Below, one piece after another: positions 59,128 to 61,182 of a stretch of 64,000 nt of DNA. The position numbers and the translations under genes were made by a program. The stretch is taken from positions 705 to 64,704 of the forward strand of contig JAYEJB010000043.1 of NCBI GenBank assembly GCA_034716415.1. Direction: 5' to 3'. Position 1 is the stretch's first letter. Each line of letters opens with the position of its first letter. The notes under the pieces were generated by a model. The model did no database searches. It was not told where the DNA came from and was given only the letters and a program-made list of their open reading frames with translations. This stretch comes from Patescibacteria group bacterium. GTDB lineage: Bacteria > Patescibacteriota > Patescibacteriia > SG8-24.

Positions 59128-59156
59128 TTGACCTGGCAACGATATTAAGCTAACAT
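59128..59156 (+). promoter_or_regulatory. sigma70-like promoter TTGACC-N17-TAACAT upstream of receiver-domain gene 1
   Basis: ttgacc tggcaacgatattaagc taacat, then SD aaggaaagg and the ATG at 59187. Confidence 0.4.
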
Positions 59157-59186
59157 CCGTTATTGCTCTATAGAAAGGAAAGGCGC

Positions 59187-59591
59187 ATGGCAAAACCCGT
59201 CCTAAGACCGACCGGAGCAAAGACCATTGTCGTTATGGATGACGAACAGCTGGTCCTGCGCTCCATGACAAGACGGCTGACATTGGCCGGATATCACGTG
59301 AAAGCATTTTCGGATCCGGTCCGGCTCATCCAGGCACTTTGTGAACTCAACATGGAGTTCGATCTGTTGTTGACTGATATGGACTTCGATGACGGATCCG
59401 GGTGGAGCGGCGCCAGAATCATCGAGGAGCTCCGCCGAGAGGGGTTCGACCAGCCGATGATCCTGTGGAGCGGCGGAAAGAATATTGACAGGGTGACTAT
59501 CGGACCCAACAGCTCAACCCTGAAGATGGGTAAGGGTGATATCGCTGATCTGCTGACCAGAATTTACGACCTCTTGGATATTTCGGCATGA
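59187..59591 (+). CDS. stand-alone response-regulator receiver (REC/CheY-like) domain protein 1
   Basis: DD pair (VVMDDE), phospho-acceptor Asp (LLLTDMDF) and a conserved Ser/Thr region (MILWSGG). Confidence 0.6.
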   Translation: MAKPVLRPTGAKTIVVMDDEQLVLRSMTRRLTLAGYHVKAFSDPVRLIQALCELNMEFDLLLTDMDFDDGSGWSGARIIEELRREGFDQPMILWSGGKNIDRVTIGPNSSTLKMGKGDIADLLTRIYDLLDISA

Positions 59592-59688
59592 TATGTGCCA
59601 AGGCACCACTTGTCTCAGGTGGTGCATTTTCTATTCCGGTGTCCTATGCTGAATACAGACGCTCTTTAAAGGGCGCGGGAGGTGCAGC

Positions 59689-60048
59689 ATGAACCGCGTC
59701 CGCATCATGTTGGTGGACGATGACTACGACTTTCGTGTGTGTCTGGCGATCGATCTCAAAGGATACGGCTGTCTCGTCCATCAGTTCGAGAACGGACGCG
59801 TAGCGCTCGACGCCGCGTCAGACGGGTCAGTCGAGTTCGATATCCTAGTCACGGACTGGAAAATGCCGCTCCGGTACGGCGACGAGCTGATCGAAGAACT
59901 GCGTGAGGGCGGATTTACCCAACCGATGATCCTCTGGAGCAGTAATCTACCGCTACCGAAATGCGTGGATGCCACACTTGTTCTCGGTAAGAACGTCGGC
60001 CTGTCGGGACTCACGGCCGCGATACGCCAATGTCTGCAGACACCCTGA
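59689..60048 (+). CDS. stand-alone response-regulator receiver (REC) domain protein 2 (paralogue)
   Basis: MLVDDDYD, ILVTDWKMP and MILWSS. No histidine kinase or output domain nearby. Confidence 0.6.
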   Translation: MNRVRIMLVDDDYDFRVCLAIDLKGYGCLVHQFENGRVALDAASDGSVEFDILVTDWKMPLRYGDELIEELREGGFTQPMILWSSNLPLPKCVDATLVLGKNVGLSGLTAAIRQCLQTP

Positions 60049-60107
60049 CACAACCGCTCATGCGAGCGGTCTTTTCATTAAAAAAGATCCTAGTCACACC
60101 AGGATCT

Positions 60108-60566
60108 TCAGATGTCGAACTTTGTGATCGGCAATCCGGTAAGTTTTTGCACCGTCAGCTCATCGACGATCTTAATGTTGATGCCCTTGGCCTTTCGAAG
60201 AACGGCAATCTTCTTCAACCCTTTCGCCGGAAACATCCCGCTTTTCCTGGTGCGGTGCTTGACCTCGATGCCATGGACAATCTCCCGGCCGCCGTCCCTG
60301 TCCGTCCAGATGCAGGCCCGCTTGTCGAAGATGAAATCCGGCACATACACCATCGGCATGGTGTCCGACCAATCGGGATGAAAGACCTTGATGGACACGT
60401 CCGGAGTGAACGGCACACCCATTGAGTCAAGCAGCCTGGCTACGGCGACCTCACCGGGCGTGACGTATCTGTACTTGCCGTACTTAATCCCGCTTGACTT
60501 ACCTACGACTCCGACGCTCACCATAAGAATCCCGGACCAATCCGCGTCATCCGTCAGTGTGGTCAA
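60108..60566 (-). CDS. PD-(D/E)xK nuclease-fold protein, Hjc/YraN-like (paralogue 1)
   Basis: E..A..L...G.PF ... VPDFIF ... IHGIEVK matches the E-(x)n-D-(x)n-E-x-K layout of Hjc/YraN-type endonucleases. Confidence 0.45.
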   Translation of the reverse strand: MTTLTDDADWSGILMVSVGVVGKSSGIKYGKYRYVTPGEVAVARLLDSMGVPFTPDVSIKVFHPDWSDTMPMVYVPDFIFDKRACIWTDRDGGREIVHGIEVKHRTRKSGMFPAKGLKKIAVLRKAKGINIKIVDELTVQKLTGLPITKFDI

Positions 60567-60663
60567 AAGAACCTCCTATCCGTTCAAGATTATCATCTTG
60601 CAACGTTCGGACTCATCCGTCAAAAGCGGAATAAAAAACCGTCAGCCCATACGAGCTGACGGA

Positions 60664-61182
60664 TCACTCCTTCTTCTTTTTCTTCCTGTGGGGCTTGCGT
60701 CGCTTAAGCTTCAGCGGCAACCCGCCTTTCTTGGCATAGAGTCCTATCTCGGCGTCACTCATCACCATGACGTGGATACCGCGTTGGTCGTACAGCAGGC
60801 GCGCCCTTTCAGGCTTCTTGTCCGATGCCTTGGCTTCGATGCCATGGATGACGAATTCTATCCCGTCCTCCTCGGTCCATATCCATTCATCTCCGTTGAA
60901 GATGAAGTCAGGGACGAATCCGAGCGGGGTGGTCCTGACGGAGCCGTCGGAATTCAGGAACTTACCATCGTTCTTCACCCTGAATCTCATATCCGGTATG
61001 AACCCCACATCGTGCTCAGTGAGCATTTCAGCGAGCAGCATCTCGCCCAGGGTGCAGTAATGATAACCGTTGTGCTCGTAGAGACTATTTTGACACCCGA
61101 CGTTCGCGCTGATGAATTTGATTCCCTTCCAGTCCGCTTTTTTCGCGGACCGGAACCGGTTCACCCGTTTCTTCCCTTTCAT
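60664..61182 (-). CDS. PD-(D/E)xK nuclease-fold protein, Hjc/YraN-like (paralogue 2) with a poly-Lys/Arg tail
   Basis: GEMLLAEMLTEHDVGFIP ... VPDFIF ... IHGIEAK. C-terminal KRRKPHRKKKKKE. Confidence 0.45.
   Translation of the reverse strand: MKGKKRVNRFRSAKKADWKGIKFISANVGCQNSLYEHNGYHYCTLGEMLLAEMLTEHDVGFIPDMRFRVKNDGKFLNSDGSVRTTPLGFVPDFIFNGDEWIWTEEDGIEFVIHGIEAKASDKKPERARLLYDQRGIHVMVMSDAEIGLYAKKGGLPLKLKRRKPHRKKKKKE

Follow-up and report, generated by a model that had tools for sequence, protein, structure and literature searches.

Two stand-alone receiver genes run towards two small nuclease genes in the genome of a Patescibacteria group bacterium, and this arrangement raises the question of whether the four form one system or are neighbours with separate roles. 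We analysed the locus within a 64,000-nucleotide stretch of the metagenome-assembled contig JAYEJB010000043.1 (positions 705 to 64,704 of the forward strand; hereafter, the window), in which the receiver genes REC1 (59187..59591) and REC2 (59689..60048) lie on the plus strand and face the tandem nuclease genes NucA (60108..60566) and NucB (60664..61182) on the minus strand. All four open reading frames (ORFs) are present where an earlier note on this DNA had placed them. The nucleases constitute a previously unclassified, small family, found so far only on Patescibacteria-type contigs. In one of three remote loci, as in the main clade, their genes have a fixed position beside a gene for a PcrA–Cas4-like helicase-nuclease, usually together with DciA. 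The explanation towards which we lean, as modestly probable, is that NucA and NucB are paralogous PD-(D/E)xK repair or recombination endonucleases linked to this helicase-nuclease, with facultative orphan receivers alongside. A joint receiver–nuclease system is not supported as a unit.

NucA is a protein of 152 aa whose TTG start codon is preceded by GGAGG, and NucB is a protein of 172 aa with the endonuclease fold of the PD-(D/E)xK superfamily, a basic N-terminus and a K/R-rich C-terminal tail that ends in KLKRRKPHRKKKKKE. The two share 32% identity (E value of 2e-23), which identifies them as paralogues, and both carry the arrangement E...VPDFIF...IHGIE(V/A)K; the tandem paralogy, the motif and the tail had all been described correctly in the earlier note. 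Both proteins are identical to NCBI entries titled 'MAG: hypothetical protein U9Q03_03815/03810 [Patescibacteria group bacterium]'. A word-indexed search returned seven homologues of NucA. When 1.84 billion cluster representatives were searched exhaustively with a HMMER profile, no more than 85 clusters reached E ≤ 0.001; almost all of these are stand-alone proteins of about 150 aa, and the named sources of family members are Patescibacteria or Parcubacteria. In an alignment of 78 members with a mean column identity of 21%, six residues are invariant (E47, A51, L54, D92, E116 and K118, in NucB numbering). Four of these—E47, D92, E116 and K118—are the classical set of helix-1 Glu, PD Asp and ExK residues that defines the active site of PD-(D/E)xK enzymes, and they are likewise invariant in alignments A2, A4, A5 and A6. 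The concern that a proper alignment might reveal missing catalytic residues was therefore not borne out. On their sequences and models, NucA and NucB are predicted to cleave phosphodiester bonds in a metal-dependent manner.

Assignment of the family to a known group was approached through profiles and structure. NucA, NucB and the 78 relatives matched no model in Pfam (at E ≤ 1 for the window proteins and E ≤ 0.1 for the 78 members), NCBIfam, PHROG or PADLOC, apart from one weak hit to Vsr (PF03852), in which a single member of the 78 matched with E of 0.004; the family is not assigned to Vsr on that basis. The Pfam profiles of Hjc (PF01870) and T7 endonuclease I (PF05367) were matched by neither the window proteins nor the 78 members, and neither profiles nor structure placed the family with YraN/UPF0102 (PF02021). 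Queries of PDB sequences, with single proteins and with profiles, gave no significant match; the sole hit of the family profile was T7 endonuclease I (3cae), at a non-significant E of 0.33. When profiles were compared by hhalign, T7 endonuclease I scored a probability of 39% over a segment extending from helix 1 to the PDF strand, and Vsr scored 47% over 21 residues of helix 1 only. AlphaFold (AF2) models were confident for both proteins, with a predicted local distance difference test (pLDDT) score of 83.9 and a predicted template modelling (pTM) score of 0.78 for NucB, and corresponding values of 93.2 and 0.87 for NucA. The order of secondary-structure elements is identical in the two models, both of which contain the restriction-endonuclease-like alpha/beta core of the PD-(D/E)xK superfamily. 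Foldseek searches of the models against the PDB gave no significant match, and Hjc was not the closest structural neighbour. Against viral models, Foldseek returned weak matches (E of ~1e-4, template modelling scores of 0.35–0.48) to DUF1064, DUF559, TnsA_N and endonuclease I proteins. NucA and NucB thus belong to a new family of the PD-(D/E)xK superfamily, placed in its Vsr / DUF559 / TnsA-N / endonuclease I corner; in structure they come closest to the Vsr / DUF559 / TnsA-N / T7 endonuclease I group, and the family is not a relative of Hjc or YraN. The earlier assignment to an Hjc/YraN type accordingly holds at the level of the superfamily fold, which the models reproduce, and fails at the level of the family.

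Gene context was compared across 28 related loci, which came from a genome scan, a metagenome scan and look-ups of genes. To annotate them, we used hidden Markov models (HMMs) of the nuclease family and of the receivers, together with the neighbouring genes of the window itself. All main-clade loci follow the same order: the atp operon, optional Pro_CA_2-like or other genes, one to three nucleases, zero to three receivers, the helicase-nuclease, DciA (in most loci), a membrane protein, mreBCD and PBP2. The nuclease stands at the same position in all of them and has diverged in step with the flanking housekeeping genes, and wherever a main-clade locus extends to the helicase-nuclease, the latter adjoins a nuclease or a receiver. 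In the window, the helicase-nuclease gene (56087..59050, minus strand) is divergent from REC1 and encodes a 987-aa protein with the Pfam domains UvrD-helicase, UvrD_C and PDDEXK_1. NCBIfam models delimit a PcrA core at residues 17–701 and Cas4/AddB matches at the C-terminus, which describes a PcrA/UvrD-like helicase with a C-terminal AddB/Cas4-type PD-(D/E)xK nuclease. The DciA gene of the conserved block lies downstream of it (55792..56115, minus strand) and was assigned by PF05258 and synteny. A remote subgroup of the nuclease family was looked up in three contexts. In the first (L030), a Metallophos gene is the only one between the nuclease and the helicase-nuclease, which is followed by GIY-YIG and M23 genes and DciA, with neither an atp operon nor a receiver. 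In the second (L031), it lies near a LigD_N gene and four genes from ruvA, again with no receiver, and the context of the third (L032) was uninformative. Taken over the main-clade loci and L030, the helicase-nuclease is a more persistent neighbour of the nuclease than the receiver is, although independent observations are few.

Under the explanation that we favour, NucA and NucB would be DNA endonucleases that depend on Mg2+ and serve in chromosomal repair, recombination or replication restart, possibly working as homo- or heterodimers. A candidate activity is the cutting of branched, nicked or damaged DNA, which would then be unwound and resected by the neighbouring helicase-nuclease, and the basic N- and C-termini of NucB would provide non-specific DNA binding. 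The receivers would fill a variable slot between nuclease and helicase; their phosphate probably comes from a kinase encoded at a distance or from a small phospho-donor, and they would act through protein contacts. The present data do not link the target of the receivers with the nucleases. Several observations weigh against this explanation. Within the main clade, shared synteny confounds the adjacency of nuclease and helicase, and elsewhere this adjacency is seen in only one of three remote loci. The specificity for a substrate cannot be read from the modelled nuclease fold. Moreover, the receiver HMM found nothing outside the receiver slot in any fetched flank, and the receiver is kept in its slot and orientation, down to about 33% nuclease identity, more faithfully than would be expected of an accidental neighbour.

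The receivers themselves were as the earlier note had reported: single-domain proteins with an intact Asp pocket. REC1 (ATG at 59187 as the likely start, TTG at 59163 as the alternative) and REC2 score 39.1 and 37.1 bits, respectively, against PF00072 Response_reg (cutoff of 30.2) and match no other Pfam domain. By Pfam, the receivers lack an output domain and the nucleases lack a receiver domain. In alignment with CheY, both receivers retain the acidic DD pair, the phospho-acceptor Asp, the Ser/Thr and the Lys. The two are 31% identical to each other, and orthologues of REC1 are found in L002, L003, L006 and L010. The PF00072 match spans only positions 1–82 of the 111 in the profile, and throughout the receiver subfamily the beta4–beta5 (alpha4) segment is 5–8 residues shorter than in CheY. 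REC1 and REC2 are stand-alone receivers of a subfamily that is specific to their lineage and is characterized by this shortened segment. A beta4 motif, PM(I/V)LW(S/T), is conserved in the subfamily (59187–60048 of the window and orthologues). In two loci, three receiver-fold genes stand in a row (L002, 1366–2961; L003, 4098–5609). In the REC2-type copy of each row, Gly replaces the phospho-acceptor Asp and 'DA' stands where the acidic pair would be. The middle gene encodes a 130-aa protein without a Pfam match that can be aligned as a degenerate form of the receiver; this protein and the REC2-type copy are apparently both pseudo-receivers. No cognate histidine kinase or histidine phosphotransfer (Hpt) donor was found in the window: H-box and G2-box motifs are absent from all ORFs of 60 aa or more in the whole 64 kb, none of 10 large unassigned ORFs has a kinase domain, and the receiver HMM detected no receiver other than REC1 and REC2. 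A literature search on Patescibacteria receivers or resolvases returned nothing specific.

Receivers are present in 13 distinct loci (the receiver-bearing set being the window, L002, L003, L004, L006/L010, L008, L012, L016, L017, L018, L020, L021, L023 and L028) and, wherever present, they are convergent to the nuclease and divergent from the helicase. Co-occurrence with the nuclease therefore extends well beyond the genome of the window. Five distinct loci lack a receiver (L007, L009, L014/L019, L022, which is uncertain, and L024), and their scattered placement in the nuclease tree implies that the receiver was lost repeatedly. The pairing of receivers with nucleases that the earlier note had emphasized is not a fixed feature. 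No constant ratio is kept: L007 has two nucleases and no receiver, L001 has three nucleases, and L006 has one of each. On the explanation that we favour, the arrangement of two plus two in the window would be the product of separate duplications in one sub-lineage. A specific pairing of REC1 with NucB and of REC2 with NucA, considered by comparison of the trees, was rejected on account of L006, in which a NucB-type nuclease stands beside a REC1-type receiver, and of L012, in which it stands beside a REC2-type receiver. In L001 (553–2314), three tandem nuclease copies lie downstream of atpC on a contig of 2.4 kb, and the third copy (198 aa) is the most divergent.

At its most specific, a repair-endonuclease role for NucA and NucB would consist in resolving DNA junctions in the manner of T7 endonuclease I, a plausible conjecture. 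In this form, the nucleases would be Holliday-junction resolvases of the T7 endonuclease I/DUF1064 type, acting as domain-swapped homo- or heterodimers and serving as the cellular resolvase of the lineage, a proposal that we regard as a doubtful possibility. The order of motifs agrees with that of T7 endonuclease I ([ST]xxE on helix 1, G-I/V-x-F, PDF, ExK and a basic C-terminal tail), the enzyme is the one PDB sequence that the family profile reached, and the viral fold matches include DUF1064, endonuclease I and a phage junction resolvase. The remote member near ruvA (L031) points in the same direction, and the presence of two paralogues is compatible with a dimeric enzyme. However, none of the sequence matches is significant, the spacing from the Asp to the ExK motif is 24 residues compared with 10 in T7 endonuclease I, and the hhalign comparison with Vsr is as weak and as good. 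That receivers and nucleases form one module, in which phosphorylated receivers would bind NucA and NucB or the helicase-nuclease and switch them on or off, is unlikely in our judgement; under this reading, DNA cutting would be coupled to an external or cell-cycle signal. The constancy of slot and orientation in the receiver-bearing loci argues for it, as do the restriction of the receiver subfamily to that slot in the window and in the fetched flanks, and the full Asp pocket of most receivers. CheY, DivK and CpdR likewise are stand-alone receivers that act through protein–protein contact. A precedent for a nuclease effector under receiver control exists in a minority of Detocs variants (10.1101/2023.01.24.525353). 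On the other side, all main-clade loci represent one vertically inherited synteny block, and adjacency alone is therefore neither proof of a functional link nor independent evidence for one. The five scattered loci without a receiver keep both nuclease and helicase, the remote family members in L030 and L031 have no receiver beside them, and the acceptor Asp is gone from the REC2-type copies of L002 and L003. Copy numbers of the two kinds of gene vary independently, receiver types differ beside the same nuclease type, the genes are convergent and separately terminated, and no kinase was found within 64 kb. Slightly less likely again is the particular case in which the truncated-alpha4 receivers are, in this Patescibacteria branch, phosphorylation-dependent partners of the new endonucleases, of the PcrA–Cas4-like helicase-nuclease, or of both.

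Alternatively, the block could have arrived as an insertion into a variable hotspot that follows the atp operon, in the form of a selfish or defensive element such as a toxin, a restriction-like nuclease or a Detocs-like two-component defence. Gene content between atpC and the helicase does vary, with Pro_CA_2-like, YunG, SNase, Metallophos and bAvd-like genes, and the nuclease fold is common to homing and restriction enzymes. However, the nuclease is held at a constant position in all main-clade loci and diverges together with the housekeeping genes around it. No PADLOC or PHROG model matches it, the kinase and the receiver–effector fusion that Detocs requires are both lacking here, and the G+C content of the block (0.546–0.550) shows no anomaly relative to the value of ~0.55 that is typical of the window. 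We therefore consider such an element very improbable. A phage origin of the nucleases was likewise rejected, as a scan of viral contigs gave a single 43-residue match and no real one.

The organization of the locus fits the picture of separately expressed genes. The conserved block is bounded upstream by atpC (61290..61724, minus strand), which encodes the epsilon subunit of ATP synthase and is the last gene of the atp operon, the order upstream of NucB on the minus strand being atpG, atpD, atpC. T-run hairpins stand 3′ of atpC (61252..61273, minus strand), NucB (60639..60662, minus strand), REC1 (59603..59625, plus strand) and REC2 (60053..60070, plus strand). A further hairpin with a U-run stands 3′ of NucA (60080..60109, minus strand), where it overlaps the stop codon and has a folding energy of -15 kcal/mol (z of -5.1). 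As each gene has its own terminator-like hairpin, atpC, NucB, NucA, REC1 and REC2 look like separate transcription units. A sigma-70-like promoter match lies upstream of REC1 in the divergent intergenic region shared with the helicase (59128..59156, plus strand); it is a consensus match only, and the number of such matches in this region is not above shuffled expectation. A shared operator, such as a LexA box, was sought upstream of NucA, NucB, helicase/REC1, REC2 and lexA, and no common palindrome or meaningful 8-mer was found. Past the receivers, the minus strand continues with the helicase-nuclease, DciA, a 131-aa membrane protein, mreB, mreC, mreD and PBP2. Within 5 kb, the four genes are flanked on the helicase side by genes for the helicase-nuclease, DciA, the membrane protein, MreB and MreC, and on the ATP synthase side by atpC, atpD and atpG, which agrees with the earlier statement that no histidine kinase, Hpt or output domain is encoded within that distance.

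Several further features of these loci and of the window were recorded. In L014 (2342–3819; equivalent to L019), the receiver slot holds a staphylococcal-nuclease homologue with an N-terminal hydrophobic segment and a 129-aa ORF, and in L030 (8733–9476) it holds the Metallophos phosphoesterase. Putative carbonic-anhydrase-like genes (Pro_CA_2/CsoSCA-like) recur between atpC and the nuclease, or nearby, in several lineages (L004, 1304–3533; L007, 8403–9263; L016, 7049–7840; L030, 5024–5452). In L007 (7479–7862), a gene for a four-helix bundle of the 23S_rRNA_IVP/bAvd-like type lies between atpD and atpC and breaks up the atp operon. Two loci come from metagenome-assembled genomes titled 'uncultured Gammaproteobacteria' (L008, CAYPMU010000087.1; L009, CAZAPV010000018.1). 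They share the synteny of atp, nuclease, (receiver), helicase and mreB with the Patescibacteria loci and are therefore probably mis-binned or mislabelled. Elsewhere in the window, a LexA homologue with LexA_DNA_bind and Peptidase_S24 domains is encoded at 15816–16487. The G+C content falls to 0.44 at 8001–10000, compared with ~0.55 elsewhere, and two ORFs in this stretch (8291–8560, 89 aa; 8557–9597, 346 aa) have no Pfam match; given these two properties, the segment may be a foreign insert.

The nuclease family has an intact active site and is covered by no model in Pfam, NCBIfam, PHROGs or PADLOC, and its genes are conserved next to that of the main helicase-nuclease in organisms in which DNA repair has hardly been studied. 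Identifying the substrate of the family would close a gap in what is known of repair and recombination enzymes in Patescibacteria, and the family could yield a compact structure-specific nuclease. The link to the receivers, for which the support is positional, would, if true, be an unusual form of post-translational control of DNA processing. Were the receivers partners of these enzymes, the locus would encode a two-component-controlled chromosomal DNA-processing module that operates without a transcription factor.

Among known systems, Detocs is the nearest described one that unites receivers with nucleases. It consists of the kinase DtcA, the stand-alone 'buffer' receiver DtcB and the receiver–effector protein DtcC, and in a minority of Detocs operons the DtcC effector is a restriction-endonuclease-type domain (10.1101/2023.01.24.525353). 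The likeness lies in stand-alone receivers that stand beside a restriction-endonuclease-type nuclease. By contrast with Detocs, the window encodes no DtcA-like kinase, by motif or by domain, within its 64 kb, and no DtcC-like protein, the nucleases being unfused to a receiver. Moreover, the genes are convergent and separately terminated, in a housekeeping context rather than a defence island, with no PADLOC match. As individual proteins, REC1 and REC2 resemble CheY, Spo0F, DivK and CpdR in being single-domain receivers with the DD, D, S/T and K residues. They differ from these in the shortened alpha4 and in the absence of chemotaxis, phosphorelay or kinase genes close by.

On the nuclease side, the family shares with Hjc and YraN/UPF0102 the fold of the superfamily and the general E...D...ExK logic. 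No significant sequence match connects it to Vsr, DUF559, I-Bth0305I or the N-terminal domain of TnsA. Vsr catalyses its reaction without a classical ExK motif, whereas the family described here retains one. The family also differs from the Vsr group in having a beta-hairpin inserted between PD and ExK and an additional conserved segment at the N-terminus (ADWxG...S..VG). T7 endonuclease I and DUF1064 proteins are similar to it in the order of E, PDF and ExK, in their size of about 150 aa and, for NucB, in the basic tail, although the spacing from PD to ExK is longer in this family and the matches are the non-significant ones given above. Finally, whereas the T7 endonuclease I/DUF1064 enzymes are phage-borne, the NucA/NucB family is chromosomal and vertically inherited in Patescibacteria.

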